The notes below the pieces were generated by a model. That model was not told the origin of the DNA. It saw nothing but the letters and a program-made list of their open reading frames with translations, and searched no databases. From Thelocarpon superellum (Eukaryota), in NCBI GenBank assembly GCA_026025795.1, contig JAPEUG010000082.1, forward strand, positions 1-53,124: DNA of 53,124 nucleotides, in the 5' to 3' direction. The first letter of the stretch is position 1. Each line of letters opens with the position of its first letter. The position numbers and the translations under genes were made by a program. Positions 4,557 through 53,124 of the stretch are shown here, one piece after another.

Positions 4557-5623
4557 TCAGGAGAACTGCATGGAGCTTGATCAGATGTTGCGGTCTGCAG
4601 AGGAGCCATTCCAACTCACCTTCCACCGGTTCCCACAGATTTGACACTCGCAAAATGTCGTCATGGGCTCGTCGGCGCTACGTGTCTGTGCCTGGCTGTA
4701 GCTGACTTTCTTCTGGCCGCACTTGCCGCACACAAAGGCGGTGGAGATGCTGCGCTCGGCCTTGGGCACCATGGCGTCCTTCATGTTGGCCTCCTGGAGA
4801 CGCTGGTCTTCCGCCCGCCGCTCCGCCGACTTGAGCTCGTCGTGCGTCATCACCACCAGGCGCTCGGCGGAGATCTCGCCCGAGATCACCCGCTCTCGTA
4901 GCTCCGAGTTGGATTTGTTCTTGAGATTCTGAAAGAGCGCGCGCATCTTGTTCTTGTACGCGCTTTCTGTCTCCGGCCCGTACTCCGTCATCGCCGCCCG
5001 TTCGATGTCGATGGCCCGCTTGAGCACGACGGTGGGCGCTGTCAGGAGCGCGTTAGATCCAACAATACCGGACCAGGGCAGCTTCGATACGTACTGGCCA
5101 CAGTGCAGTATGCGATGCCGTCATACAGCAAGCCCAGACAGTTGTCCCTGGTGGTATTGCTCGTTCGTTTGACGTCGACCTTGTCCTTCTTCCAGTTGCG
5201 CTGGTCCGGAGGCACGGTGGACTTGCCCTCCGAGGCCGCAGTAGAGGTCCCATTTGCTGCCGCCGCGTCCCCGTTGGACGACTTGGGGGGCGTCGTTGCC
5301 GCCTTCTTCATCCCGGCCTTGGGCTTGTTCACGTCATCCCGCCATTTCGACACGATCTCGCTGGCCAGGCGCGCAACCTCTTTGTCGGCGTGCTGCTTTT
5401 GTCGGTTGACGGCCACTCCAACCTTGGTCGACTGGGACGCTGCTATTAGCCGGGAAGTGGGCGAAGGGGTGGGGTCGTTGGAGCTCACGCGCAGGAGATC
5501 TTCCGTAGGTTGTACGCCCTTTTTGAGCGACTGTAGGATGGTGAGGATATTGGAGGCGGGTTCACCGCCAGCAGCAGCTTTGTTGAGCGATCGCACACTA
5601 GCAGCAATTTCTTTGGCGTCCAT
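4557..5623 (-). CDS. DST1: Transcription elongation factor TFIIS
   Basis: C-terminal zinc ribbon CGKCGQKKVSYSQAQTRSADEPMTTFCECQICGNRWK followed by a short FS* exon. N-terminal TFIIS domain from MDAKEI. Confidence 0.95.
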
Positions 5624-6226
5624 GTTGAGGAAATCAGACTGGTGGTGGAGCCAGAAAGAGAAGAGGGACAAAGGTCTGTGGTCGCTGGGTGGTGAGCGAG
5701 GAAGGATCAGCGAATGACCGAGCGAAGTCACCCGCTCGACGTGGCAGGGTCAACGTAAGTCCTCACGAGCCAACGAAGCCAAGTCGGACATGGGTGGGAC
5801 TACGGACAATCCAGCTGAAGGGATCAGTGAATCGCTCTTCATCGGGTGACGAAAGGGACGCTGGCGTCTGCCGCTGCCGCCACCGCCGCCGCCAGCGACA
5901 CCAGCTGGCGCGCCTCGGTTGCCACCGGCCGTTGTTTCCTTGATGAGCGCGCACCAGCACCAGCACATGTACGTATCGATGTGTCCCACCGCATCCCGTG
6001 GCACCCCTGTCACCTGTACTGGGGTGATTCAAACGTTGCCGTCGCTAGGTTTGTCACCGCGCTTGCTGATACGTGGTCTTTGCTGGTAGACAATCGCCTG
6101 AGTGTTTACATTCAATCCAAGCTGCCGTTTCTGTATGCTAAACTCATCCAACGCTCCGCTAAGTATGCGAAAGAACCCAGCCGCTGGTCAAGGACGCACC
6201 ACGCACCGCAGGGGTCATGACAGCAC

Positions 6227-7359
6227 TTATGATGGAGCATCATGCTGACCCTCCCTGCGAAGGCCTTCTTCCTCCCCATGAGTGCCCTCTTCCACCCCAC
6301 GCTGTCCCTTGGCCGCGTCCGCGTGCTTGGCGGGATCGAAGACGTAGATGGGGAATTCGAGGAAGATGGTCCGCTTGAGAATGGTGGGTAGCGGAGCGTA
6401 CAGCGGCGGAGGGAAGGGGATCAGGATGCTGGTGCGTTGGAGGTATCGCGAGTACGCCTCCCATCCGTTCCCGCTCTCGTATCGCTTCTTCGCACCCGGC
6501 CGTTCCGAGAGGGGAAGGCCCGACACAAACATGAGCAGCACGGTGAGGAAGATGGGCCCGACGATGGTGGCATACAGCGCTCGGAAGGCCTGTCCGCCCA
6601 CGTATCCGTCCGCGGCGGGGGAGACGGCAATCATGAAGATCGCTGGGGCAGGACAGTCAGCCGACGAGTCCACAAGAGGATCAGAATACCCTACCGAACT
6701 GGATGATGATCTCTCCAAAGTAGTTGGGGTGTCGGCTCCACGCGAAAAAACCAACGTCACACACGACGCCCTTCTTGGAGGGGTCGCTGCGGAAACGGTA
6801 CTTCTGCACGTCCGAAACACTCTCCATCACCAGACCGATGGCGTACAGGATGACGCCGGCGATGTCTCGCCCCGTGCCAAACGCCGGCTGGGGGTACTGC
6901 GTCACATTGGGCGAATTGAGCACCGTCACTGGCAACGAGACGACCCATACCCACACCATCTGGAAAACCCAGAAGCCCAGGAATTTGAAGAAGTCGTTCC
7001 GCTTGTCGTCGAAGCGATCATCCTTGCCCGTCTTGAGGATGCGAAAGAGCAGGAAGCCAGAGAGACGCGCGCCCCAGACCATGATGAAGAGCGACGCCAC
7101 GATTTGGCGCGCATGGTGATGGCCGCTGAACGCGAGGGTGATGACTGCGAGCACGATGAAATTCGTTCCGCCCGCAAAGTCTGCGTGCGCCCACGAGCAT
7201 TAGCATCGTGGACTTGAGGGGCGATCCCAATCATCGCCTACCCGTGAGCTTATCAAACTTGAAGGAGAAGGCGATGGAGAAGAAGAAAAGTTGATAGGCG
7301 ACGGTGATCAACAATGTGATGGCCAGGTAGTAACGGTCGAGCACGTACACTTCCGCCAT
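6227..7359 (-). CDS. DUF1295 / steroid 5-alpha-reductase-like membrane protein
   Basis: MAEVYVLDRYYLAITLL start, FKFDKLT, FRILKTGKDDRFD, WSRHPNYFGE, FVSGLPLSE, YLQRTSILIP. Confidence 0.85.
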
Positions 7360-8916
7360 CATGGGCGTAGGTGTGGATGCAATCCTGGGCCAAAGTGAAG
7401 CGGTGTTGATGTTGGCGCTCGCAAAGCGTTCGGTAGAGAGTACATTATGCTTGTGATGACGCGGGCGCCGCTTACTCGGAGGGCCGCCCGCTCCGTCGCT
7501 CCGTCGCTCCGTCGTCCGCTTGTTGCCGCTTGATTTGGCGAGGCGATCGGAGCTCCGGCGATCCTCCGCCGTCGATGACGCAGTCGACAGAGCATGACCC
7601 GGACCGGGGTGCTGAGTCAGCTAGACGTTGCGCCAATCTGTCTTTACCTCCGAGCCGCGATGAGCCTTCAACAATGCATGTGGCGATCCGTCGCAAGGGA
7701 AGGGTGGATCCCTTCGTTAATCGCCCTTCTGGACACCGGTTCGATCTTAGAGTCCCTGCACCTTCTCAGAATCTTCACGTGAGCGATGTATTGGGGAGGC
7801 AACAGAGCTCCACTACCACCACGATCGCGACGGACCAATTTGGTGTGGTAAGCGCAAGGGGGTGCGCACAAAGGTAGCATGCACCCGTAGTAATGACAAC
7901 GACGCCCAGGGATAACCGCCCTAACAAATGGTCTCATTCGATTTTCTACAATCCGTGCGAAGCAATATGCCTTCCCATCAAACGAACATTCGGTGGGAAG
8001 GGGGAATGGCTGCATCTACCTCCACCAGCCGTGCACCCACGGCTGGTCATCTCCGTCCGAACCTTGGGCAGGGGGCAGGTGGCGCGGTCGTGGGCACCAA
8101 ACCATCAATCATGCTGATTCCACGGTCTCGGCCAAATGAAGTCCACAATCGCCATCACTCCTCAATCAAATGATGCCGTGATGACCTCCCTCCGCAAAGG
8201 GAGCACCGAGCCCAGACCGCTGGCCGCTCATTCGTTGTGGGGGCAGGTGAAACTGGAGTCGCTTAGCGACGACGCTGGTGATACGTGGGCCGGACTTTGG
8301 GCCCGGCCATTGGCTCCCTCGCTCGATCTGCCGGGGCGTGGACCCCCGGCCACATTCAACGGTAGAGGACATCAGACCGACCTGAGACCCTTGGCTACCC
8401 GTATTCTGTCACTTGGATCGTCGCACGGTCCGCGCCTAGTGAGCGACCCCAGTGGCAAGCAACGTCCAGATACACCCACCCGGCGCATCGTCAGTGCTCT
8501 GCGGGCCCAGTGCCACGCTCCTGCAATGCATCTGCGACCCCCCGCCTGAACCCTGACCTCGTTGGCCCTTTCATCAGCCTTCCCAGCGACGCCGAGATGG
8601 CGGCGATCGACGCATCTGCGGCAAGGCTTTATCTGGCCGCCCCGCCGCCGACCTGCTCCCCGACCGGAGGACTGGAACGTGGAAGCATCCCTTGGGCGAT
8701 CTGTCACTCTTTTCCTGCAGTCCATGCACCGTGCACCACTGTCGCTATTTCCGGTCCCATCGTCTTTTCTCCACCACGTCTGAGTGGAGCTGGTCTTCTC
8801 GTCCTTCTTCCTCTTCCATCACCCGTCGCTCGTTGTTTCCTTCACCGTTGGCAAAGAGCACCTCTTTGCTCTCCCCCCTCCGCCAGTCCTGGCCGTTCCC
8901 TTTCTTCCTCGCCGTC

Positions 8917-10792
8917 ATGAGGGCCGTGACGACGCTCCTGCTACGGCTACTCCTCTTGCTCGCGGCGTCATCCTTGCCGAGCCTGGTCGAGGTAGGTCGC
9001 CCATCTCGAGACCACGTCCGCGTTGCTTGCTCCCACTTACATTCACATGGGCTCAGGCTCAGGCTCAAGCCCAGGCTCAGGCTGCTGCCGGGGCTGCCGC
9101 CATGCCGGCTACGGGCCCGGACGTCGACCAAAATGCTGGGAACATGGCTGCGGCCGCTCCGAGCATGGCTGCAGCCGCGGCGAACATGCCCGCGGCTCCC
9201 GCCCAAGCAATGCCCGCAAACCCGGGCCCGGCCATGGGTCAGAACATGCCGGCAGGAGAAGAAAACTGCACCAGTATGAGCGGCATGACCGGTCCCATGG
9301 CTGCCGCGGCTCCTACCTCGCCGCCGGCGGCAGCGCAGCCGCAGCCGCAACCGCAGCCGGCCGCCATGTCTGGATACTACGCGAAGCCACAGCCACAGCC
9401 ACAGCCACAACAGCAGCCGGCGCAACCGCAGCCAGCGCAACCACAAAACTACATGACGACCATGACGATGTACCAGTATGTACTCCAACGGGCGAGTCCA
9501 CCGTTTTCCTCTAATCCGTGTTAGGATATCGACGGAGTACATGACCCAGATGCAATATCAGCAAATCACCATGCATGACACATATACACAGACCCAGACC
9601 GTCACCACTACCGTCAGCTCGGTGTGCCCTGTTCAATCCGTAAGTTTCGTCCGTCCGTCCGTCCGCCACGACGGAACACGCTGATTCTGACTCCTACCAG
9701 CCCTCCCTGCCCAGCCCAGCACCCGCCGACCCGTCGCCCTCACCAGCTTCGGCACAACCCACCTGCCCGACGAGCGGGTGCGCGCAGCCAGCGCCGTCAC
9801 CATCGCCGACCTGTACCACAAATTGTCCGTCGGAGATACAAACGACGTCATGTTCACAAAACTGCTCCCAGCCTGAACCGACGCCGGAGCCGGATCCGTC
9901 ACCGTCCCCCGCACCGTCCCCACCATGCACGACGAACTGTCCGTCCCCAGCGCCGGCCTCTTCGCCACCTTGCACAACAAACTGTCCGTCCCCAGCGCCG
10001 GCCTCTTCGCCACCTTGCACAACAAACTGTCCGTCGCCTTCACCCTCTCCGGCTTGTACGTCGAATTGCCCGGCGCCATCATCGTCCGCCGCATGCACGT
10101 CAAACTGCGACACGTCGGCCGAGCCGTCGCCGACCTCTTCTCCGCAGCCAGAAGCGTCGTCGTGCAATTGTCAGTGCAACTGCCCGATGAACCCGTGGGC
10201 CAATATGCCGCCGCCGCCCAGCAGCCCGCAGTGCGGCGCCATGCCGCAGAATCCTATGATGCCGTATAACATGGGCGGCATGAACTCGAGCAACTACAAT
10301 CCCCCGTACGCCAGCGGTGCCGGAGCAGGCCAAGGCGGATCGGCCTCTACTGGACCTCCGTATGCACCTCCGCCGAGCTCGCCAACGGGAGGTTCGCAAT
10401 ACGGCGGCGGCACTGGGGATCCCAACAACCCGGACAACGCGGCCGCAGCGGGCGCGGCTGGCAACTCAGTCAAGCCAAGTCCGGACAATGGAGCGAATGA
10501 CGGACTAGCGGCAGCGCTCTCGCACTTCCAGAACGCAGCGACGACGACCATGACCAACACTACCGTCACGGCCAATCCGTCGGGCGGATCCGATGGCAAG
10601 CCGCCCGGGGCCGTCAACGCCGTGGCACCTACACCCACCACGACGTCCACATCGAGCTCATCATCTACGACGTCCACGAGCTCGAGCTCGAGCTCGACCA
10701 CATCGTCACCGTCATCGATCAGCTCCGGCAGCTACGTGAGCTCCTTGACGTTGAAGCTCGGCGCGCGAGCCGCCTTGCCGACCTCTCCGTGA
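8917..10792 (+). CDS. Secreted/cell-surface low-complexity protein (~566 aa) with C-x3-C (CTTNC) repeats
   Basis: Signal peptide MRAVTTLLLRLLLLLAASSLPSLVEA. Three GT-AG introns (8992-9056, 9476-9524, 9640-9700) join into one frame. Ala/Pro/Gln/Met-, Ser/Pro/Cys- and Ser/Thr-rich segments. Confidence 0.7.
9936..10035 (+). repeat. 45-bp coding tandem repeat (about 2.2 copies; CPSPAPASSPPCTTN)
   Basis: ACTGTCCGTC restarts at 9936, 9981 and 10026. Confidence 0.9.
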
Positions 10793-11443: not shown

Positions 11444-12481
11444 CTAGCTCTTGTTGGATTTCGCGCTCGCCACACGCGCCTTCTTGGCTTGTCGTTTCGA
11501 CTGCTGGACTGGCTTTGGTCCGGGTCCCGGTCCCGTGGTTCCTGGGGTCTTGCTCTCCGCGCTCGCGCCGGCCTCGTCGTCCTTCTGGCTCTGGGCGTCG
11601 TCCAGCTTCCGCTTGGCTGCAGGCCGGGCGGAGGGGGAGGGCAGGGGCGGCAGATCGCCGCCGTCTACAACGTCCACGACGCCCCGCCAGCTCGTGCGCC
11701 GCATGTCGGCCAGCACGACCGTGGCGCGGGCCTCCGTCTCGATTGCTTGGCGCGCCCGGTCCGTGCTCAGGCCCCAGACCGTCGCGAGATTGATCACGTC
11801 AATGGGCGCGCGTAGCCCGACGGCCGTGGGCGCCTCGGAGCTGAGCACGATGCCGCGGCCGCGGGTGGCGCGGATCAGCTGCGTAGCGTTGCTGATCAGG
11901 TTCCGCCGGGCCGCCGTGTCCGTGGCCAGGATGCTCGGGGCGTAGCAGATCTCGAAGCGGATCCCGCGGGCCGTGGCGGCGCGGCACAGCGAGTGTTTGA
12001 AGTGGTATGGGTGTCGCACGGTCATATCCAGCGAGATGAGCCCCACTGGGTCCAGATGCTGGCAGGCCTGCTGGAGGGCGGCGGCCGTAGTGGGTCGTAC
12101 GGCCAGCAGGTCATAGTGCGAGGACAGTGTGGATAGTCGGTGATTCTGCGAGGGGTCGGAGAGGGTGAAGGTGCAGCGTCGGATGAGACGGAGCGACGCC
12201 GGCGCCGGTGGACTGAGTATCTTGGGGATCGGGCATGCCTGGCTCACATCAGCCCGGACACGGCCATGAAGATTTGGTCCACCTGGACAATTACCACGTC
12301 GGCCGGCAGCTTGCCCGCCAGCGTATGGTTCAAGCCCACGACCTGGTATCCTACTGTCGATCGTCAACGGTCACGGCTTCCATGCCTGCAGGTGGCCCGT
12401 CTCACATTCCGCCGCGAACGCGAGGGTCCTCGGTAAGGTGACGTCGTTCGGCGCCCAGGGCAGGTTAAGGTCATAAAACAT
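11444..12481 (-). CDS. RPP1: RNase P/MRP subunit p30
   Basis: MFYDLNLPW start, LIRRCTFTL, YDLLAVRPTT, GIRFEICY, RRNLISNATQLIRATRGRGIVLSSEA, LRAPIDVINLATVWGL. Confidence 0.92.
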
Positions 12482-12803
12482 GGGGGCGCATACTACCAAC
12501 GTAGTAAGGTAGAAAGCATGCAACAGAGTGAAAGTCCACTCGAGGCTCTGATCTGAGTCTGGCAATGTCCTGGGAAGCGTGGGAGGGGGTCGTAGTCAGC
12601 CAGATTTGGACTCGCGTACGCTCCATAGTGTGGAGGCTCCATACGGGAGCTCGAGGCTTTTGACTAAGCTGCCTCACGTGACCCACCCTAGCTGCATATT
12701 AGAACGACGGATAGCTTTCGTAGAATAGACCACCCATCTCCAGTCGATTGTTGGGGTGCGTCAGTACCAAACACGAATGAAAGGGACTTTGTGAAATACC
12801 GGC

Positions 12804-13060
12804 TGTGATGACGAAGGCCTACAGCTAGGCGGAAACAGTAGATGTAGTCAATGGAGTTGACCCTGTGGCTCCTAGGGCTCATAGACCTATGACTAGCCTC
12901 CTTGTGTTACTTGAGTTGAACACTGGGGCTCTGCTAGCTCACAGCAGGACTTGGTTTATATACAGTGTGCCAGGTCACATGCTGTATCATGTGACCATCA
13001 CATAGCCATCACATGATCACTCCTATCCTTGTGGCAAGGTGTGGAGCTCCTGGCCTCACA
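12804..13060 (-). repeat. 3' LTR (257 bp)
   Basis: Aligns without gaps to 19567-19823 with 11 differences by manual count, all transitions. Confidence 0.95.
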
Positions 13061-13063
13061 ATT

Positions 13064-13076
13064 ACCCCCTTCCTTA
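13064..13076 (-). other. Polypurine tract
   Basis: Minus strand reads AAGGAAGGGGGT a few nt upstream of the 3' LTR TG. Confidence 0.8.
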
Positions 13077-13395
13077 GCACTCTGTTCTAGGAGCGCACAC
13101 AGCTATTCACCTACTGCTATTGAACTGGTTGGCCCTGTGGGGTGGTTGTCAATAGCGCTGTAGGGCTAGGGCAATGTGTTGTTGTCATGTTGTGGTGAAT
13201 TGCTGCTAATTCACACATTGTTGATATTTGTTGTGGGTCTGTCAACACTCTGCTTCTTCTGCAGCTTCTTCATCAACTAGGATCTTGATCTGCAATTGTT
13301 GCAGCTTCTTTGTTCAAGGATATCCTGTGTCTGTTCTGCTCCTGTTCTACTCCATTGATCCACTTCCACCTCTCCAGCTTTTGCCAAACCTCACA

Positions 13396-14335
13396 ATGTC
13401 TGCTATGTTGCCTGAGCAGGTGGCCATGCCTGGCCTACCTCCTGTGTTAGATTGGAGCACCTGTCAACACTGCATCAAGTGGATCAGCCACAACCACAGC
13501 CATAGGTGCTATAAGCCTAATCTGTATAGGAAGTGCAATAGGTGCTGAAGCACTAGGCACCCCTGCCTCTTAGTATGTCAATTGCTCTGCTGTGTAGCTG
13601 CACTGATTCATTGTCATTGACTAGATCCCCACAAAGTTTGTAGGACATGTGAACACCATCTTCTGGCTGCAAGAGCAGTACATGAACTTGCTCCATCATC
13701 CTCCTACCAACACCATCACAGTGGAAACACAGCTGGAGACCTATAGGTCTAGCCTGCTGCTCCACATCTCGAAGTTCCATTCTGCTGTTGAATTCAACAA
13801 GCATGGACAGTGTGACAGCAGTGCTCTTCTTGCTGCAACTGAGCACTTGAACTTCCTCCTGATAGAGATCCTGAACCAGCTGCGCTACTTGGTAGGTGTC
13901 TGTGTTGTCTCTGCTGCTTGCTGGGTGTCGCTCACATTGCAGTAGAATCGATTCCCTGCAGTCTGCCCATTTAGTCCTGACAAGGACCCAGACCTTCTGG
14001 ACAAACCACTTGAGGGTAAGGCCACTCCTCAAGTGTGTGGTTTCACAATTGGCAGAGTCAACCCTAGCACAAACCCCAGCTCTCAATCTGCTAGGTGTTG
14101 TGGATGTGGATGTGGATCGACCCAAGACACTCCATTGTCTCCATCGTCTACTACCTCAACCCCAAGCCAAGGTCCTTCAGGGGGGACAACAACCTCAGAA
14201 CCATCCCCAAGCGCCAGCTGCCAGGCCTTGTGGTCTGCAACTCCTCACACCCTGCATAGCCAAACAGTGTCCAGCGCTTCCCACATGGCTCTTGACAGAG
14301 CTGAGGCCTCCTGTCGTCCTCTGGCCAACAACTAG
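13396..14335 (+). pseudogene. Antisense, spliced accessory gene inside the retrotransposon; N-terminal Zn-cluster-like C-x2-C-x11-C-x8-C-x2-C-x6-C motif
   Basis: CACAATG start. Putative introns GTATGT..CTAG 13573-13624 and GTAGGT..CTCAC..TAG 13892-13945 join ORFs 13228-13548, 13649-13945 and 14033-14335 in frame. One TGA (13546-13548) is explicable as CGA>TGA. The 3' end is uncertain. Confidence 0.65.
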
Positions 14336-14499
14336 CTGCTTGTTGGTTACACCTTGCAGGTCCTTTCCTGTTGAGGTGATCTTTGTATCTCTTGCTGTGT
14401 GGTTGGGCCCTGGGCCCCCAGCCACTAGGAGCTAAGCCCACATGCCACTGGCTTCCTAGGTTGCTGCGCCTTCCCTGCAGAGGGACTGAATCCATTCTT

Positions 14500-17400
14500 A
14501 ATCAACTACCTAGCATTGTGCCTGTGATTGTCTTGTAGGAGCTGTAGGACACTCATGTTAACATTGTTTGAACTTGTTGAGTAGGTCTTGTGAGTGTAGC
14601 AGGTCTTCCTCAGGCACCCAGGAGTTGTGAGCCTCTGAGTAGCCTTTCCATTGTATGAGGTAGAGCTGCTTCCTATACTGCTTGCATTCTGCTAGTATAG
14701 ACTCTATTTCCCATTTGTCTTCACCATTGATCTAGATGGGGCCTGGTTGCTCCTCATCGCTGTTGTCTCTCTGCCTGTGGGGTTCCAACAGGGAGATGTG
14801 GAACACAGGGTGTATCTTGCCCAGCTTGCTCCCTAGGTCCAATCAGTAGGCCTGCCTGCCTACTGCTTCCAATATGTGGAATGGGCCATGGTATTTTGTG
14901 TCAAGCTTCTTGCTTAGTCTTGTAGAGTGGATGTTGCATGCTGATAGCCACACCTGCTGTCTGACTGTGTATGTCATTTGCTTTGTCTTGCAATTGTAGT
15001 ATCTGGCCTGTGTTTTCTAGGCTTCCTAGAGCTGCTGCACAAGTTCTCCTTGTAGCTCTTGTAGGTGGCTAACCCTCTGTGTAACATCTGGGACCTTGCA
15101 AGGGGGTGGATCCCTAGTCAGGTCAAGCACAGGGTTGTAGCTGTACATCACATAGAACAGTGATACTCCCAATGAGGTGTGGTGGCTGTTGTTGTAGGAG
15201 AATTCAGCTAGGGGTAGCCATTGGACCCAATTGTCTTAATGCTAGTTGATGTAGCTGTGAAGGTATTGCTTGAGTGTTTGGTTCTGTTGTTCCATCTGTC
15301 CATCTGTTTGTAGATGGAACACAGAGCTCAAGCAGCGCTTGATCCTTGTGTGGTAGCACAGCATAGACTAGAAGCTTGCTGTGAACACTGTGCCTCTGTC
15401 AGAGACTATGGAGCTTGGTAGCCCATATCTGCTAACAACCTGCTTGATGAAGACATCTGCCAGCTTGGGTGTGTCGATTGTCTTGCAAACTGCAATGTAG
15501 TGCACCATTTTGGTGAAGTGGTCCATGACAACTAAGATGGAGTTGTAGGCCTTCCTACTGCTACCACTTAGGGGTAGGTCAGTGACAAAATCCATGGTTA
15601 GGTCCTTCCATGGTTCCAATGGTGGAGGAAGCGATTGTAGCTCTCCATACTGCTTGTGCCTTGCTGGCTTCATTTGTCTGCACATGGTGCAGGTAAGGAC
15701 ATACTCCTCAATGTCCTAGGCCACAGTAGGCCAGCTGTACTTTTGCTGGACCAGCTCTGTAGTCCTGTGTACACCAAAGTGCCCTGCTAAAGGGTTGTTG
15801 TGGTGGGTTTGCATAACCTCCAAGCATCCTGCTCCCTGAGCAGGGACATACAGGCGCCCCTTGTGGAGCACAAGGCTGTCTGTGTCCTTGCTCCACACCA
15901 CTGTAGGGTTGTTGCATCCTTGTGTTGACATATCAGCATTGTCTTGTAGGAAGCCCTTCTGTGTTATATGTATAACATCAGGGTCTGCTTGCTGCAGTTC
16001 TGCGAGGACCTTGCAGAAATCGCTTGTAGCTTTGCTGTAAGCTGTCTCAGCATGTGATGCTGCAATCACTGTTTGTCACAGTGTAATGCACACATGGCTG
16101 CCACTGCTAACCATCAGGGCGAGCGCTGCTGCTCCACCTGGTTCACCTGTTGCATGGGGTTGGTCATGGCCAGCCATGGTATCAACAAACCACATGGGAG
16201 TTTCCTGCTCAGGGGCAGCAGCTTGCTTGTAGTCTGGACATCTCAATGGAGTGTTGGCTGGGTTCAATCTCCCTGGTCGATGTGTGATTCAGAAGTCATA
16301 TTTGGATAGGTCACTATACCACCTCTTGTGGTGTCCACTTAGTGTCTTAGCTGAGGTGAACATGCAGAGATTGTTGTGATCTGTCACCACCTCGATCTGG
16401 TGTGCTGCACCCTGGAGGTAGTGTCTCTACTGTGCAAATGCTGCAACAATTGCTAGCATCTCCAGGTTGCCTGTATTGTAGTTGTACTCAGTGTCTCTGA
16501 GCTTGTGCAAGTAGAACACAATGGGTTGCTATTGGTGGTGTAGCTTCTTGTCTTCCTGGTGCTGCTAGCACAGGATTCCTGAGATGCCTATCTGCAAGGT
16601 GTCTGTCTCAACCCATAGGGGGAGGCAGGGATCAAAGTGGCCTAAGACTAGTGCCTTGGTGAAGGTGTTGTGTAGTTGTTTGAAGGAGTAGTGAGCTTCC
16701 TGTGTCAACACCACAGGTGTGTTCAACTTCTTGCTTAGTGTCTTCACCAGCACATTGAGTGGCTGTGTGAGCTCTACAAAGCCCTTGATGAAGTGCTTGT
16801 AGAAGTTCACAAATCCAATGAATGATTAGATATCCCTTGTAGTCTTAGAAGCTGGCCATTCTACAACAGCTTCCACCTTACTAGGGTCCATATAGATCCC
16901 CTAAGGTGTGATGACATACCCTACAAAGGGGACTCTGTTGACATTGAACTAGCACTTTTCTAGCTTGAGAAATAGGCTAAGGTGTAGGAGGTGTTCAAGC
17001 ACCTTGCACATGTGCTGTGTGTGCTCAGCCTTGACTTTGCTGTATATGACAATGTCATCCAAGTATACTACACAGAAGTTGTCCAGGTATTCTGCTAGTC
17101 CTCTATTGATATAGCTCTGGAATGTAGCAGGGGCGTTGACAAGCCCAAATGGCATCACCCAGTATTCAAAGTGTCCATATCTTGTTTGGAAGGCTGTCTT
17201 CCACTCATCCCTGTCCTTGATGTGGATCAGGTTGTACACAGCATGTATGTCAAGCTTGGTGAACACCTTGCCCCACAAGAGTTGATCTAGCAACTTGCTG
17301 ATCAATGGCAGTAGGTGCTAGTTCTTCTTGGTGATCTTATTGAGACCCCTGTAGTCCACACAGAGTTGCAGTCCCCCACCTAGCTTAGGCACAAAGAGGA

Positions 17401-18190
17401 CAGGGGCTCCTGCTGGTGACTTGGAATGCTGGATGAACCCCTTTTCTAGGTTGGTTTCCACATAGTCCTTGAGGACACTCAGCTCTGTAGCTGATAGGTT
17501 GTAGAGGGGCCCCCATGGTGGCTCTCCCTCTGTGAGGTCAATGGCTATGTCATGTGGCCCATGTTGTGGTAGCTGGTTTGCTAGCTCCTCAGAGAAGACC
17601 TGCTCAAGGTCAGAGTATTCAGGTGGTATAGATTGACTAGTAGACACAGCTACTATAATGTAGTGCTCTTGTTGGTCATTGTCCTCATAGAACATGTAGA
17701 TTGCAAGGACACTGATGTGCTCCTGCTCTACTGCAGTAGCCAGCTCTCAGGCCTTCATGATTGTGACATTGTTGCACTGCTGCAGGATCTCGCCCCTGCA
17801 AGTCCATGTCTTTGTTGTCTAGCAGATGTCTAGGTTGTGCTTGTCAAGCCACAGGTAACCCAGAACCATCTTGTACTAGTTGAACAGTGTAGCCACAAAG
17901 GAGTCCCTTGAGTCTAGGACCTGCCCTTTGCTATCTCTGGCACAGCTAGTCAACTGCTTGACCCCATATGTAGGGATGTGATGTCCCCTGAATGCTATTA
18001 CCTGTGGGGCAGGCTTGTCACAGTCATGTAGCTGCAGCTCCTTAGCTAGCAGATGTGACACAAAGTTTTGTTCTGCTCTAGAATCGATCAGCGCTGTGGC
18101 TGTGACTGTCCTGTTGTCTTGCAGGATCTCAATCAGGACAACCAATTGTCTTGTGTCAGTCTCAGAATGGCGACTCAGTAGCACTGACAT
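14500..18190 (-). pseudogene. pol: pol pseudogene: protease, RT, RNase H, integrase, chromodomain
   Basis: ALIDSRAEQNFVS (protease). [44 protein letters not shown] (RT). LTMDFVTDLP, IVSDRGTVF (integrase). WEIESIL..YLIQWKGYSEAHNSWVPEEDL (chromodomain, ~14590-14720). Many in-frame stops; ends approximate. Confidence 0.93.
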
Positions 18191-18199
18191 GATGTCTAC

Positions 18200-19509
18200 T
18201 AAGCCCCTGCTTTTGGGTTGTGTGCTGGCTTCCCTTGCTTCTTGCCACAGCAGTCTTTCTCCTTATGGCCCTTGTAGCTGCACTAGTTGCATTCACCACT
18301 GAACCCCTTCAACATTGTATAGGTCAAACTGCTGCTATGGTCCTAGGGCTTAGTTGATGTGGATGAGGTGTTCAATGTTGACAGGGCAGACATGTGGTTC
18401 CACATACAGCTCCCTCCTGTCAACTGGTTTGGTAGGGATCAGCCTGACCATGACATCAATTGACTGCTTCTACACAGCTGTAGCACTGATCTGCAGCCCT
18501 GTTTGGGCCCTGAGCCTAGCCCTAGGGCCCTGCTTGCAGCCTGAGGGTTCAGGAGTTGCTAAACCTTAGACACCTCTACTATCAGGCTCTCTCAATCAGT
18601 GGGGTGTTTGTCCTTAGCATCAAGTTCTTGTTGTATCTCTGGTAACAAGCTGGCCTGTAGCACTCTGACACAAGCTGTGTTGTTGATAGGGTCCATGAGG
18701 TCCTCCAGTGATTCCAGGTAGGATACAAAGTGGAATAGGTCCTGTCCTGGCTTCTGCTTTGCTCCATAGTATGACTGTGCTGCACTGTCAGCTTGGGTGT
18801 TGCCAGGGTTGATCAAAAGTCAGAAAAAGTCTTTGACTTCCTTCTAGGTTGTTAGTGGTGTGGCCCCTACTTGCTTGTGTACAAACTGGTTGACCATGCC
18901 AGGCCCTAGCCAGTTGCTTGCAAGGGTAAGCTGGTCCTCATCTGTCTTATAGGTGTACAGCTTGGTTTGTAGAAGGTGTTTGACACAGTAGACCTAGTAT
19001 TGCCACTTGTTGTAGGTGCAACCATTGTAGTAGGGTGGATTACCCACATCCCTGTCCTTCTCCTCTCTGTGTCACTTCCATGTGGTGCCTGAGGATGCAG
19101 ATGAGTCAGGTGAATAGGGTTGTTGTTGGGGAGTGTTCCCAGCTGTCTGCTTAGGTGTGGTGTCAAGCTGTGTTTCTCTGGAGGTCTCATTAGCAGTTTC
19201 TCCAGGCATGGTGTCTGTCACACAGCTCTGCCACCTAGCAATCTCTTGCTCAAGTTTTCGAATATCAGCTTCCTCCTTGAGGACACACAGCTGTTCTTCA
19301 AGGGTCTGCTTGTGTTGTAGGTAGGATATTGTGGCTGTAGGTGGTGTAGGGGCTTCTGTGCTTGTTGAGGCCTGCTGGATCTTATAGTCTTGTTGGCTGT
19401 CTGCTAAGATCTTGGTGTTGGTGTTGATGTTGTCAATCCTGGTCTCAGTGTTAGGTCTGCTTGACCCCTGTGTGGCTCCTAGGTGGGATGTTGCTTGAGT
19501 CTCCACCAT
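18200..19509 (-). pseudogene. gag: gag pseudogene with CCHC zinc knuckle
   Basis: ATG at 19509. CN*CSYKGHKEKDC knuckle at ~18250-18291 (TAG probably from TGG). AKQKPGQDL..FVSYLESLE gag-like segment. Confidence 0.8.
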
Positions 19510-19554
19510 GGTGCCTGTCTGACTGGTTCTGGCTAGCACCCTGCTGGGTATCTG

Positions 19555-19563
19555 AGTGTTCAA
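19555..19563 (-). other. Putative self-priming primer-binding site
   Basis: Lies 3 nt inside the 5' LTR and is a perfect 9-nt complement of LTR 19679-19687. Confidence 0.6.
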
Positions 19564-19566
19564 AAC

Positions 19567-19823
19567 TGTGATGACAAAGGCCTACAGCTAGGCAGAAACA
19601 GTAGATGTAGTCAATGGAGTTGACCCTGTGGCTCCTAGGGCTCATAGACCTATAACTAGCCTCCTTGTGTTACTTGAGTTGAACACTGGGGCTCTGCTAG
19701 CTCACAGCAGGACTCGGTTTATATACAGCATGCCAGGTCACATGCTGTATCATGTGACCATCACATGGCCATCACATGATCACTCCTATCCTCGTGGCGA
19801 GGCGTGGAGCTCCCGGCCTCACA
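19567..19823 (-). repeat. 5' LTR (257 bp), minus-strand TATATAAA at ~19718-19725
   Basis: Direct repeat of 12804-13060. Confidence 0.95.
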
Positions 19824-20106
19824 CCGGCTGGGGTCGAGTATTCACGTAACCGCCGTCATGTGGAGCAACTGCACTAGTGGAACCACTAATTTTTCGACTT
19901 TACAACAATTTCAAGAATTATGAGTCTGCAAACGCCACAAGTCTCTAGTCTCTACAGGCAATACAGAGTTCGCAAATTGCCAGGACCGTTCCAGAGATCG
20001 AGAAGTCAGGTGTATGGGGGGGACACTCCGCTTCGGTGCCGGTTGAGATGCTGGAAGCCTCTTGGCTGGGGAGGATGTTACTCCACAGGAGCGAGTATTA
20101 CCGGGG

Positions 20107-20197
20107 TGTGGGAATCAGAGCTGAATTGCTCATCTACACATAGTCTGGGATAGTGATAGGCGTGGGCACGTGACCAGATCACGTGCGCGCTCCTACA
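20107..20197. mobile_element. 91-bp TG..CA repeat (mini solo-LTR/MITE-like) with double E-box hairpin
   Basis: TGTGGGA..TCCTACA termini with GGGG on both flanks. Inverted homolog at 52712-52810. Confidence 0.6.
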
Positions 20198-20297
20198 GGG
20201 GTATGCTTGTGTACTGTTCTCATGACTTCAGGGGTTTCTTTGAAAGCGTGTATGGTTGGCTCGCTCAGGGAGAGTGGAATATTCGAAAACTGTCTGG

Positions 20298-21181
20298 CTA
20301 ACGTGCTCGGGCTGGCACACACTGTGTTAACATTATATGACTTGCAGCCGGCCTGTCCTCCATCTCGACGAGCAGCTGCTCCTGTGGAGGTGAGAGATTG
20401 GGGAAGCGTTTTGCGAGGATGACGCGGTTCCAATACTCTCCCACCAGTCTCGTGAGGCAAGCCTCTTTTTCCTGTTCGGTGTGCGGGGTTGGAAACTCGC
20501 CCTGCAGCTCCTTGTTGGGGATATCCGTGATTTCCGTCATTGATCTCCCTGCGCACGCCACTGATTCAAACCGGCTGAAAGTCATCCAGACCTGGACGCA
20601 AAGGGATCCGAACATTTCTTCCGCCCGGTTTTAATCTTCAATTGAGACCGGCAGCGACTTGCAGTTCTGAGGCCGTAACAAACGCCAGTGGCCGTGTCCT
20701 CCTTCCATTCGAAGCGTCGGCGCAGCTCCATCTGCGTTTGCCATCTTCCTCTCCTCTTCGAGCTCGTCCTCGAGCTGCTCTACCTCCTTGTCTCTTTCCC
20801 TATCTTGCTTTATTCTCACGTCGACGTAGTCGTAACCTGGCGTGGCGGCCAGCCAGGCGATCGCCTTCAATTCTGCAATCTCCTACGACTGATTAGCGTG
20901 CACGAAGCCGACCGGGGTGATGGTAACGATACCTCGTCCTTCTTCTCCATTTCCTTTCGAAAGTCCTCATAAAATTGGCTGGTCTAGGCTGGTGACTCGT
21001 CAGCGAGCGCCGGATCCAACATGGCCCTGTTCGAAGAGAAGGAGGAGAGCACCTTCCACCGCCGCTGGTTGTCCCTTCTCAACATGTGCGTCTGGAACCA
21101 TCGGAAGATGCCAGGCAACGACATCCTCGTCGACTCATGTCTTCCATCCGGGATGCCGCCATCTGAGCCACACCGATCCAC
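20298..21181 (-). CDS. Hypothetical protein, possibly degenerate; exon structure uncertain
   Basis: Protein-like charged segments in ORFs 20298-20615, 20631-20870 and 20984-21181. A GTATCG..GCTAAT..TAG intron is visible at ~20932-20883. Confidence 0.35.
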
Positions 21182-22309
21182 GCTGCTACTTGGCTAGAAG
21201 ATGACGTGCTCCATATGGGTTGTGATGGACGATGCGTTGCAGAGACGGCACGATGGCAGCCTCTGTAGTCTTCTGGCGGTGAAGTGCAGTGGGAAAAGGC
21301 ATCTTATTGCAGCGAAGACCAACAGATAAACGTGGGGTGGTGGAGCCGCACCCTGAAGACTTCTGAAACACGCCATATAGCTGAACCGACGACCTGGCAT
21401 CACGACCGTCATGAGGTGCGTTGCTCTGGAGCTCCGTTTCCCTGCTGGCTCGATCTTCTGCCCTTCCCACCTTCGCAGGGGAGCTCTTTCCGGCCACCTG
21501 AGAGGAAGTCGGAGAAAGACGTAGCCGAAGACGCAAGCCCACTTTGGTGTCGGCGTGTATCGCGACCGCGGATGGCAGCGCCCGTTCGCCGCGTGCACAG
21601 CCTCGCCATGCCCTGATGCAGTGGACTGATTCATCAAAAAGGCACCGAAGTTCAAGCGTCCGCAAGATGGGAGCATGTACTGATGTGAGCCAGGACACTC
21701 CCATCTACGAAGGGGCATTCTTTCCGTGGCCGCACGTGCGGCACATCTCGGGCGAGGACGAGCCAGGTCCTCCTGGTGATCGTCATCTTTGGATGCGCTG
21801 CGCAAGTGCCCACGCAGAGCGTCGATTCCAGGGAGTGAATTCGCCCCCGCTTGTCGACATGCTTTCATCGGGGCAGCATTTCAATCTTTTGAGCTCTGCC
21901 TGCTGCAGCCCGATTTGAGCACGATGCTCACTCCTAACTTGTTGCCCGCCATGACCGATTGAAAGGAGACACGGTCTATTCTTTCCACTTCCGAGTCGAG
22001 GTGAGGCTCACATGGAGAGGTGTCATGTTCGACCTGGACCATTACGAGGAAAAGACACGGAAGCACTGTGGAAGTTCGGGATTGATCGAGCGCGTGATGC
22101 GAGCATAGACGGAGATAGATGTGCTGAGCTTTTGTCAATCGGATTTGCTGCTAGTCCCAATCAAACGCTGCCAACCCGCCTTCCAATAGATGCTGGCTGA
22201 TGTCGCAAGCGCGCAGATCGCCGACATCCATCCCGCTCAAACCGTGGGCGGTCAAACCTGACGCGGGCCTCTGTCCGCCCGAGCCGGACGCGAGGCCCCG
22301 AGTCCCCGC

Positions 22310-50530: not shown

Positions 50531-52416
50531 CTAGATCTCGTCATGCTTCGGAAACTGAACCTCCCACGCCCTGGGTGAGATGGGCAGCCCGAGCCAGAAC
50601 TCCCAAACTCTCGATAATTCAAGAATGATGATTTTCATGCTTCGCAGCGAAGTCAGCGCGTTTGTCATCACGGGCTCAGACAACAGGCAATACTCACATC
50701 GTGCCTGGCAGGACGAACCAGCTTCTGATCACGTACCCGAACACCCGCCAAATTCTGTACCACTCTTCCCACATGGCCTCGGACGGGTCAATCGGTTCGT
50801 ACTCCCCAAAGTCCTCGCCCAACTCTTCATCTGCAATGTCATCTCGCTCATCACCATTTCCGATGGCTTCCGAGCTGCTCCCAACAATCGTTTGATCGTG
50901 TTGCTCCGCCAGCACCTCGCGGAGGCGAGAAACCGCCGTGATCGAAGTCGAGATCTTGTCGAGCGTGTTAATCAGTGCCACCAATTCGGTCCGCCTCAGC
51001 GGAAATTCGTCCTGCCGGTCCGCGTCGTCACCGAACTCGAATAGGACCTTGAGCGCAGTGCCGTAGCCGGCGGTTTGCACTTTGCCCCATAGGCGGCACT
51101 TGTCGCACCCCACACAGTCCATCATCCGACTGACGTTCCGGAAGCGGTTTCGGAAATCTTCCTTTAGTCCGACCGTCGACGGGTCTTGGAACATCAAGCT
51201 TTCGTCGAAGATGGCGGGCCCAGCTGCGGCCTTCTCGGTCAGCGCTAGCACCTTTTGCTTCGTAAATCGGTCCTGTTCGACATCGCCCGAGCAGAAAGTG
51301 TAGCCCTTAAGATGGGTTCGAAGTTTCGTGACGGCGCGAAGTACCAGGGCATAGTTGAAATACAGATTCGAGATGCGTTCGGGGTGTTGGTCGAGTCGCT
51401 CCTGATAACATGACAGGTTGGGTCCCCACATGCCAGTCGTCTGATTGAGGTAGTCCCAGCATATGTGAGCACTAATGCTCGCGTGCATGCCCGAAATGAT
51501 GCGATAGAACACACGCTTCTCCAGACACTCGTTGTCGAAGTCGAGTCCATCGTCCACCGTCACGGGTTGGGTGCTGCGGGCGACGGCTTGTGATCGCCCG
51601 TAGTCTTTGATCACGCTCTTGAGCGCGTCAGCCGCTTGCCCCGGGAAGACCGCCGAAGCTCCTTGAGAACCTGATCCTTTGGAAAGCGCCTTCGAGAAGC
51701 AATTCTCTCGATAGATAGAATCCCATACTTGCCGAGCACCTGTACCGGCGTAGCCAGTGAATCGCTCGGGATTGTCGACCAGGCTCACATAGTCACCCTT
51801 GACCGTCGAACTTTCGTCCTCGGGAACACAGTAATCCCTTTCGTCGCACTCGTCGTCCGCTTCTAACACGCAGCTCTCACCGACATCTTCGCCCAGCTGT
51901 CCTTGCAACGGTCGCTCTTGTCGATCGTGCCGCTCTTGCTGCAGCCTACGGCCAGGATGACCAGCTTTGGGGCCCTCAAGCTTGCCCAGCTCTTCCGCTC
52001 GCCAGATCAAGGGTATATCCGACTCGCTGTCGAGGGTATAGACAGCGCACGCGATGTTTCCACACATGCTCTCCGAGTCCGTCCAGAACGGGCATACGCG
52101 GTTGAAGAGATTCAGACGATAGTATGCGAAGAAGTCCGTGGTCTGGGTGATGTCCTTCAATGCCGGAGTCAACTCGCGATTCAGAGAGTCGAGGGTTGAG
52201 TATGATGCACAGGCGTCAGAGACGATCGCCTTCGGTTCGATCTACATGCAGCGGATTAGCGATTTGTCCTCTCACTCCGCCATGAGATTTCTCGCAACTT
52301 ACGGCGCACACTTCCGCCTTGCCCGGAGCCAGTCCATGGTGGCCAGCGGCGGTTGCACGACTCAGCCATGCAAACGCCGCAAGATAGAAGGCCTGGGTCG
52401 CCGAACGTGGCCGCAT
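50531..52416 (-). CDS. ERO1: ER oxidoreductin 1
   Basis: Signal peptide, DFFAYYRLNL, CPFW..CGNIAC, NPERFTGY, ISGMHASIS, RMMDCVGCDKCRLWGK. Last exon ends KHDEI*. Confidence 0.96.
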
Positions 52417-52711: not shown

Positions 52712-52810
52712 TGTAGGAGTGAAGCAGCGCGCACGTGATCTGGTCACGTGCCTACTCCTATCACTATCCCAGACTACGCGTAGATTAGCAATTCAGCTCT
52801 GATTCCTACA
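52712..52810. mobile_element. 99-bp copy of the E-box hairpin repeat, inverted relative to 20107-20197
   Basis: Perfect 7-bp terminal inverted repeat TGTAGGA..TCCTACA and an 8-bp insertion relative to the internal copy. Confidence 0.65.
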
Positions 52811-53015: not shown

Positions 53016-53124
53016 TAGGGTTAGGGTTAGGGTTAGGGTTAGGGTTAGGGTTAGGGTTAGGGTTAGGGTTAGGGTTAGGGTTAGGGTTAGGGTTAGGGTT
53101 AGGGTTAGGGTTAGGGTTAGGGTT
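53016..53124 (+). repeat. Telomere (TTAGGG)n, about 17-18 repeats
   Basis: Perfect TTAGGG array to the end of the sequence, with the G-rich strand pointing outward. Confidence 0.98.

Follow-up and report, generated by a model that had tools for sequence, protein, structure and literature searches.

How did a 6.5-kb stretch of a fungal contig come to lose nearly all of its CpG dinucleotides, when the genes on both sides of it are rich in them? The stretch lies in a window of 53,124 nucleotides (the whole of the DNA analysed here, positions 1 to 53,124 of contig JAPEUG010000082.1 of Thelocarpon superellum, assembly GCA_026025795.1) and is the inside of an element at 12803-19823 on the minus strand. 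This element is a 7,021-bp chromovirus, that is, a Ty3/Gypsy (Metaviridae) retrotransposon bounded by long terminal repeats (LTRs). An earlier note on this DNA, made from its letters alone, had proposed a CpG-directed hypermutation governed by the base 5' of the C, different from the CpA-directed repeat-induced point mutation (RIP) of Neurospora. We propose, with a probability of roughly 60%, that a multi-copy chromovirus was inactivated after its integration by a RIP-like, repeat-confined C-to-T mutator that prefers CpG and is guided by sequence context.

CpG loss and the bases that are hit

We counted 29 CpGs in the interior of the element (13061-19566, 6,506 nt), an observed/expected ratio (O/E) of 0.07, which agrees with the figure of about 30 that the earlier note had given. 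TG and CA are each in excess (O/E 1.56) and the GC content is 0.49. In the left and right flanks, the CpG O/E is 1.03 and 1.06 and the GC content 0.60 and 0.58, respectively, and the CpG trough, followed in 500-nt windows, is restricted to the element. The TpA O/E is 0.60-0.62 in the flanks and 0.76 in the interior. Relative to the flanks, the loss of 84.6 CpGs per kb is approximately balanced by a gain of 62.8 TG/CA and 20.7 TA per kb, and the fall in GC content from about 0.58 to 0.49 matches the CpG loss in size.

The surviving CpGs follow a strict pattern. They lie in GCGC (10), TCGA (8), TCGC (4), GCGA (4), TCGT (2) and GCGT (1); none is found in ACG, CCG or CGG, and CGT occurs three times. 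All 29 are thus preceded by G or T, versus 2107/4102 CpGs in the flanks (binomial p 4e-9), exactly as the earlier note had described. The class [G/T]CG[A/C], in which a slash separates alternative bases, accounts for 26 of the 29, versus 1117/4102 in the flanks (binomial p 3e-12). This pattern is not general to CpG-poor Gypsy elements, since in a control set of 13 other CpG-depleted Gypsy relics from metagenomes only about 37% of the survivors (64/173, summed by hand) belong to this class (Fisher p 8e-8). From the flank frequencies, about 150 [G/T]CG[A/C] sites would be expected, of which 26 are left (∼17%), versus about 430 expected CpG sites of all other contexts, of which 3 are left (<1%). 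Conserved arginine codons behave in the same manner, with two of nine kept within the class and none of 14 outside it.

Survivors alone do not distinguish a rule on the 5' base from its mirror image, since [A/C]CG is CG[G/T] on the other strand and the loss of either C destroys the site. We assigned the mutated base in 460 conserved columns, those in which at least 11 of 13 intact homologues (about 45-50% identical to the element) agree. The element differs in 110 of these columns; 71 of the changes are single C>T or G>A substitutions and two are double, while the remainder (17 single transversions, 5 other transitions and 15 multiple or other changes) is what homologues of 45-50% identity lead one to expect. 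Among the 71, the mutated C (bracketed on its own) lies in T[C]G 19 times, in G[C]G 15 times, in C[C]G and A[C]G eight times each, in C[C]A 14 times and elsewhere seven times. Fifty of the 71 are therefore at CpG, and the base following the G is T in 22, A in 12, C in 10 and G in 6. The earlier note's idea that TCG and GCG are spared does not hold: each retains only about 9% of its flank density (∼91% lost), and no context is hit more often than T[C]G, followed by G[C]G.

The trinucleotide balance locates the target base more precisely. Measured against the flanks, the loss of ACG (19.2 per kb) is accompanied by a rise of 22.4 in ACA/TGT and of 0.4 in ATG/CAT, and the loss of CCG (23.0) by rises of 12.0 in CTG, 1.2 in CCA and 14.3 in CTA; TTG and GTG rise by 13.0 and 6.0, respectively. 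A second baseline, the pol gene of an intact relative (L001, CpG O/E 1.03), gives similar values (ACA/TGT +21.9, ATG/CAT +4.7, CTA/TAG +11.1). Individual sites point in the same direction: the C on the CGT side was struck 4:1 at ACG/CGT sites of the LTRs and 5:1 in six arginine codons of the type ACG[A/C], so that it was the target in 9 of the 11 ACG/CGT sites of known ancestry. Of 23 conserved CGN arginine codons, 16 are now CAN, four TGN and one TAG, and two are kept (tCGA and gCGC). The C of ACG is thus rarely the base that is mutated, and ACG becomes ACA, not ATG. As for the preference for (A/C)-C-G announced by the earlier note, the elimination of ACG and CCG sites stands, but the C of ACG is seldom the base concerned. 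The rule belongs to the two-strand CpG site, which persists only where both strands lack a hot context. A kinetic rather than absolute preference explains this: a few-fold or several-fold difference in rate is enough to produce a clean pattern of survivors near saturation.

A second target lies outside CpG. C[C]A is converted to CTA, as the earlier note had suspected from the frequency of TAG stops and CTAG words. Among 15 conserved tryptophan codons, four are now TAG, none is TGA and 11 are still TGG; six conserved proline codons have become CTA, and the 14 conserved-column changes at C[C]A have already been counted above. The stops at 16567 and 16828 go back to cCAG and cCAA, where other copies of the family still have the G, and other copies likewise have the G at the one TGG-to-TAG difference between the LTRs. 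CTAG occurs 52 times in the interior versus about 7 expected from flank frequencies (a gain of 6.9 per kb). CTA/TAG rise by 11-14 per kb, whereas other NTA words do not, and the excess of TA is limited to CTAN and NTAG, with none for ATAT, GTAC or TTAA. The pol gene runs in one frame from 18100 to 14560 without a frameshift and carries 21 stops, of which 14 are TAG, four TGA and three TAA.

We picture the mutator as an enzyme that would convert C to T on both strands of duplex DNA and would recognise the repeated unit as a whole. Its hottest targets would be [C]GT together with CCG/CGG, struck on both strands; T[C]G[A/C] would be intermediate and [A/G][C]G[A/C] coldest. As the loss of either C removes the CpG, only [G/T]CG[A/C] would lack a hot C on both strands, and near saturation roughly 17-22% of such sites would persist versus <1% of the others. 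The second C of C-C-A would also be converted, turning tryptophan and glutamine codons into TAG, and CCGG would become CTAG by a hit at C[C]G on one strand followed by a hit at C[C]A on the other. The efficiency drops in the outermost 30-110 bp of the element and the activity does not spread to flanking DNA.

Mutation in place and its alternatives

The two LTRs of the element (the 3' LTR at 12803-13060 and the 5' LTR at 19566-19823, both 258 nt and on the minus strand, delimited by direct-repeat alignment) record what happened after its arrival, since paired LTRs are identical at integration. They are 96% identical. Their alignment reproduces the count made in the earlier note: 11 differences, all transitions, nine of which fall at eight ancestral CpG sites, the other two being TGA/TAA and TGG/TAG. 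Over the 258 aligned positions there is no transversion, no indel and no difference outside a target. At least about 60% of the LTR CpGs and about 95% of the interior CpGs are gone, the CpG O/E being 0.12 in the 3' LTR and 0.29 in the 5' LTR. When the derived states are sorted by strand, the left LTR has plus-strand C-to-T changes at five places and G-to-A changes at two, and the right LTR G-to-A at four and C-to-T at none. Single-strand runs of mutations are described for Neurospora RIP, and the split seen here may come from such runs or from sequence context. We abandoned an estimate of about nine LTR CpGs at the time of insertion, since a non-random choice of strand makes independent hits concordant, and hence invisible.

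Seven CpGs are left in the LTRs, ACGA and GCGG in the left one and TCGG, TCGT, GCGA, GCGT and CCGG in the right one. Only one of the seven obeys the [G/T]CG[A/C] rule, versus 26/29 in the interior (Fisher p 3e-4). The two in the left LTR (12812 and 12830) are within 30 nt of the left end of the element and the five in the right LTR (19715, 19793, 19798, 19803 and 19814) within 110 nt of its right end; all seven are kept in the LTR copy at the outer end and mutated at the homologous inner position (p 0.008). They thus escape the context rule because they are sited at the outer ends. Immediately beyond, the adjoining pieces of an abundant repeat into which the element is inserted (the host repeat) and the unique DNA have a CpG O/E of 0.80-0.94 (0.94 for the unique DNA). 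A process that acts on the 7-kb repeat as one unit and is weaker at its borders fits this pattern, while spreading heterochromatin or editing before integration does not.

Other copies of the family were sought by matching the contigs of four public runs (X1-X4) to the region 12300-20400 at a likeness of at least 80%. In run X1, the contig depths add up to about 4,600-8,000 over the interior, compared with 150 over the unique flank; this depth is not equal to a copy number, and the element belongs to a highly repeated family. Transitions make up 959 of 997 variant places in this run (A>G 231, T>C 198, C>T 273, G>A 257). Variant detail was available for 40 of 1,219 rows, picked by support; among these rows, each of at least eight adjacent pairs goes back to a single ancestral CpG, now CA in our copy and TG elsewhere or vice versa. 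Such a site was therefore struck on different strands in different copies, by independent events in each copy. Runs X2-X4, moss metagenomes from a second study, contain pieces of the family that are mostly 90-99% alike and whose differences are likewise dominated by transitions (in X2, A>G 168, T>C 140, C>T 153, G>A 150 and 39 transversions); no X2-X4 contig covers the unique flank 12300-12570, from which we draw no inference.

Taken together, LTR changes confined to targets, a pol gene free of frameshifts, alternative TG and CA outcomes from copy to copy, spared edges and intact flanks fit a process that is fast, acts in situ and is confined to the repeat. The data show directly how the element is built, which changes it carries and in which contexts, that the copies were hit independently and that the edges are spared. 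By analogy with Neurospora and Ascobolus, the enzyme could be a cytosine methyltransferase homologue of the RID/Masc1 or Dim-2/Masc2 type, which would act before meiosis and sense homology. Several points weigh against a RIP-like mutator. The base-by-base analysis concerns one copy, taken from a metagenome-assembled contig that may be a mosaic. Ancestral states were deduced from the composition of the flanks or of a distant relative, from homologues of 45-50% identity and from 40 of 1,219 rows, and these rows, being picked by support, over-represent outcomes for which our copy is in the minority. The 9/11 choice of strand is not significant on its own (p 0.065), and the direct CCG/CGG cases are mixed. 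At this single locus, the unique flanks have a CpG O/E of about 1 beside a multi-copy element, yet the abundant neighbouring repeat is also unmutated, which calls for a further assumption, for example that repeats must exceed a threshold length. The dependence on homology, the timing and the enzyme would all be carried over from other fungi. Lastly, a specificity for CpG would also result from methylation followed by deamination.

The last point leads to an alternative that we regard as unlikely but worth serious attention, in which the element decayed through methylation and no homology was sensed. Heterochromatin methylated at CpG by an enzyme of the DNMT5, Dim-2 or Masc2 type would lose its 5-methylcytosine (5mC) by deamination, spontaneous or enzyme-aided, and the survivor contexts would reflect flanking-base biases in the methyltransferase or in T:G mismatch repair. 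Such decay would account for CpG specificity and strand symmetry together. A context effect of this kind also has a parallel, as mammalian DNMT3A and DNMT3B prefer certain bases after CpG, two positions 3' of the target C; this is the position with the largest influence here ([C]GT), but these enzymes are de novo methyltransferases and not mutators, so that we take the resemblance as a lead only. However, passive decay of 5mC is only about 10-20 times faster than other substitutions and would for this reason leave a visible background divergence, whereas the LTRs show 0/258 non-target differences versus nine CpG hits at eight sites, a ratio far above 10-20-fold. The non-CpG target C[C]A, the sharp limits at the element ends, the sparing of the outer 30-110 bp and the untouched flanks also argue against it. 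In the portions of two papers that we compared, a CpG-signature C-to-T bias in fungal transposable elements is ascribed to methylation plus deamination (PMC4352252, PMC4165359), which speaks for this alternative.

Much less probable is that the composition was inherited, either from a family that was already CpG-poor or from a mutated master copy mobilised in trans, before this insertion took place. Most TG/CA states are shared by the two LTRs (TG+CA O/E 1.5-1.6, with eight variable sites) and could predate the insertion, but a strong strand preference at hot sites would make independent hits concordant anyway. Moreover, other copies show the alternative TG/CA outcome at the same ancestral CpG, the differences between the LTRs are of the same type as the changes inside, 21 stops interrupt pol, and the accounting of GC and CpG suits an ancestor of host-like composition.

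We give equally little credit to an effect of assembly, whereby the contig copy would be a mosaic of family members in which the survivor rule and the edge effect look cleaner than they are. In its favour, the family is highly repeated, only 0.67 of the sampled words of the element were found in the best run, and no contig piece spanning it was among the matches listed. The letter in the window is nevertheless often in the minority among contigs (at 13426 and 16847, for example), so that the copy is not a majority consensus, and copies that differ by 5-10% or more should usually be separable by assemblers; the mutational preferences of the family would show even in a mosaic.

Editing of the cDNA by an APOBEC-like cytidine deaminase during reverse transcription, with the copy arriving already mutated, is scarcely credible: it would explain why the mutated DNA ends exactly where the element does, why the LTRs are struck less than the interior, why non-CpG hits favour the second C of CC and why the TG excess over the flank baseline is 342 on the plus strand versus 67 on the minus strand, but this skew stems from the composition of the ancestor (on the sense strand of an intact relative, ACA:TGT is 63:15 and CA:TG 210:152), palindromic contexts are balanced (TTGA 48 vs 46), as are the derived states of this copy (A>G 231, T>C 198), and the 11 LTR differences, at target sites on both strands and in a mirror pattern tied to the outer ends, need a change after integration.

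Relation to known mutators

The RIP-like mutator that we favour shares with the RIP of Neurospora crassa and most Pezizomycotina its restriction to C-to-T and G-to-A changes, its action on both strands, its stop-riddled products, the independent mutation of each copy and its speed, and would probably also share its confinement to repeats. All 11 LTR differences and 959 of 997 copy variants are transitions, and 73 of the 110 changed census columns are C>T or G>A only. The two differ in their target. Classic RIP prefers CpA and leaves AT-rich relics, whereas here CpG is the main target, with its O/E of 0.07, and the GC content falls only to 0.49. CpA is not lost but rises to an O/E of 1.56, contrary to the dominant CpA loss that the earlier note had named as a result speaking against its proposal, and a flank-dependent, CpG-directed process unlike CpA RIP is what we find; the TpA O/E moves only from 0.60-0.62 to 0.76, its excess being confined to CTA/TAG. 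A further difference is that we see no leakage into the flanks. According to the portion consulted, a lichen fungus of the genus Cladonia has classic AT-rich RIP, with a GC peak of its transposable elements near 16% (PMC12542154).

CpG-preferring RIP-like mutators are already published for other fungi, as excerpts of the papers make plain, and it is in the flanking rule and the CCA target that this element differs from them. Uncinocarpus reesii is "predicted to be RIP'd at CG dinucleotides" (PMC4165359, in part), and the section seen of another study describes a CpG-signature C-to-T bias in transposable elements of Tuber and Microbotryum and cites Aspergillus (PMC4352252). These ascomycete cases (U. 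reesii, Tuber, and Aspergillus with CpG plus CpA), as presented in these extracts, share with ours a dominance of CpG-to-TpG changes, which here amount to 50/71 census changes and 9/11 LTR differences. The same extracts mention neither a tetranucleotide rule nor a sparing of [G/T]CG[A/C], and a C[C]A target is likewise missing from them; Clutterbuck 2011, a possible source on flanking bases, lies outside this comparison.

The nearest published case of a flanking-base effect is in Basidiomycota. In Pucciniomycotina (Microbotryum, Puccinia, Melampsora, Rhodotorula), the consulted part of one paper describes RIP-like CpG hypermutation with a strict TpCpG target (PMC3318451), so that there, too, the rate at CpG is set by a flanking base. 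The target is strictly T[C]G in that account, whereas here T[C]G is one context among several (19 hits, next to 15 for G[C]G and eight each for C[C]G and A[C]G), [C]GT and CCG/CGG are hotter, CCG and ACG are fully gone, and TCGA and TCGC are among the survivors. The methylation induced premeiotically (MIP) of Ascobolus and similar systems, including that of Tuber, have in common with the present case the CpG preference and, probably, the restriction to repeats (PMC4165359); in the passages considered they consist largely of reversible methylation with modest mutation, whereas about 95% of CpGs are mutated here and there is no measurable background divergence. The expectations of the two remaining models are not borne out either: APOBEC editing would strike one strand, and the changes are balanced (A>G 231 vs T>C 198, balanced palindromes, LTR differences on both strands), while passive decay would give a CpG excess of about an order of magnitude, and we find 0 non-target versus 9 CpG hits in the LTRs.

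A 2025 survey across the fungal kingdom states that RIP-like defences share a preference for CpA, and the word CpG does not occur in the part of its main text compared (PMC12543289). We found no published rule like that of this element in the literature compared, itself covered in part, and PMC3318451 was the sole paper on a fungal trinucleotide target among the matches listed. It is possible, and we put it forward tentatively, that the Thelocarpon lineage has a RIP-type mutator whose specificity is set outside the CpG itself ([C]GT and C[C]R hot, R[C]G[A/C] cold), unlike the published CpA, CpT, CpG and TpCpG types, and that, together with the CpC-to-TpC repeats of metagenomes described below, it makes the target rules of fungal mutators far more varied and evolvable.

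What is known of RIP target specificity rests on the comparison of lineages. To our knowledge, neither the chemistry of the RIP enzyme nor its choice of target has ever been reconstituted. The present case adds a defined rule, in which the base after CpG has a strong influence, a CCR motif is involved and CpG is lost almost completely while the GC content is barely lowered. Its host is an ascomycete whose relatives have classic AT-rich RIP, which makes it well suited to relating target preference to differences in RID, Dim-2 or DNMT5. If the proposal is true, varied target rules could be mapped to sequence changes in RID/Masc1-like enzymes. Repeats inactivated in this way would be overlooked by RIP detectors built on TpA/ApT or CpA indices, and reading survivors on a single strand can mislead about the target base. 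All of this calls for caution, as it comes from one element and from sequence inference.

Repeats with other signatures were seen in metagenome contigs. Loci L005-L022, L024, L026, L032, L033, L036 and L038-L041 contain repeat tracts of 5-10 kb with a GC content of 0.24-0.35 and 0-3 CC+GG per kb, which rises abruptly to 100-140 per kb in flanks with a GC content of 0.44-0.49. In six of these CpC-poor loci, the codon aligned with tryptophan is TGA 45 times and TGG once, proline is mostly TCN, and glycine is often GAN, with many AAN. These features indicate a probable repeat-confined [C]C-to-TC hypermutation that has run to completion, and there is a weak lead towards a host in Ascomycota; no title on RIP of the CpC type was among the literature matches listed. 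Two further loci (L059 and L060) are Gypsy pol relics with 1-2 CpGs per ∼2.9 kb (O/E 0.01-0.02) and normal CC. They too have undergone an almost complete hypermutation of the CpG type, in a metagenome organism unrelated to this one, and their survivors are too few for a test of the flank rule.

Anatomy and surroundings of the element

The assignment to the Ty3/Gypsy chromoviruses rests on the paired TG...CA LTRs, on a 5-bp target-site duplication, CCGGC, present at 12798-12802 on the left and at 19824-19828 on the right in the LTR-LTR alignment, and on pol, which was translated with X placed at the stops and scanned against Pfam, and which shows reverse transcriptase, RNase H, integrase and a C-terminal chromodomain in this order. 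On the minus strand, these are the reverse transcriptase (16910-17365; PF00078, E 4.3e-26), RNase H (16298-16705; PF17917, E 1.1e-22, and PF17919, E 2.3e-18), the zinc-binding domain and catalytic core of the integrase (15323-15820; PF17921, E 3.2e-16, and PF00665, E 8.2e-07, the latter with a score of 29.7 bits, under the curated cut-off of 32.6), its Tf2-1-like SH3 domain (14777-14956; PF24626, E 4.9e-16) and, at its C-terminal end, the chromodomain (14564-14713; PF00385, E 5.6e-12). Upstream, and in another frame than pol, a remnant of the gag CCHC zinc knuckle (C-X2-C-X4-H-X4-C, with an internal stop) was recognised by eye in the frame translation at 18250-18291. Throughout the internal region (13061-19565, minus strand), the gag-pol frames are interrupted solely by point-mutation stops. 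A polypurine tract, AAGGAAGGGGG as read on the minus strand, was found by inspection at 13065-13075, with 4 nt between it and the 3' LTR downstream. Beside the 5' LTR we recognised no primer-binding site.

The closest intact full-length polyproteins are about 50-52% identical to the element, and the best match among shorter proteins is 59% identical. Same-family copies were also sought in three sets of contigs: the metagenome contigs gave 80 loci, none above 45% amino-acid identity, the viral contigs gave no match, and the genome contigs gave 26 pattern matches, none of which was confirmed.

The host repeat is split by the element into a left piece (12629-12802) and a right piece (19824-20197), delimited by depth, by loose ends at 12629 and 20197 and by composition, with high depth continuing to at least 20400. 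One contig joins 12797 directly to 19823, an empty site showing that the element was inserted inside another abundant repeat, which is roughly 0.55-0.75 kb long. The CpG O/E is 0.88 in the left piece (10 CpGs) and 0.80 in the right piece, ACG and CCG are present, and the repeat is not hypermutated. A part of it of 91 nt recurs in inverted orientation at 52720-52810 with a 91% match; the eight differences include two TGG/TAG and two CG/CA. A scan of 19700-21200 against Rfam gave no family for the host repeat.

Elsewhere in the window, the flanks carry ordinary fungal genes, among them those for RSC4, ATG14, Hsp70 and RNase P p30, as well as ERO1 at 50694-52241, whose product matches at 100% identity a protein that NCBI assigns to a metagenome-assembled genome of the lichen-forming ascomycete Thelocarpon superellum. 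A long open frame without a Pfam match (9644-10792) contains five tandem copies of a 39-45-nt unit at 9895-10107. The last positions, 53016-53124, consist of (TTAGGG)n telomere repeats, so that the contig reaches a chromosome end, about 33 kb away from the element.

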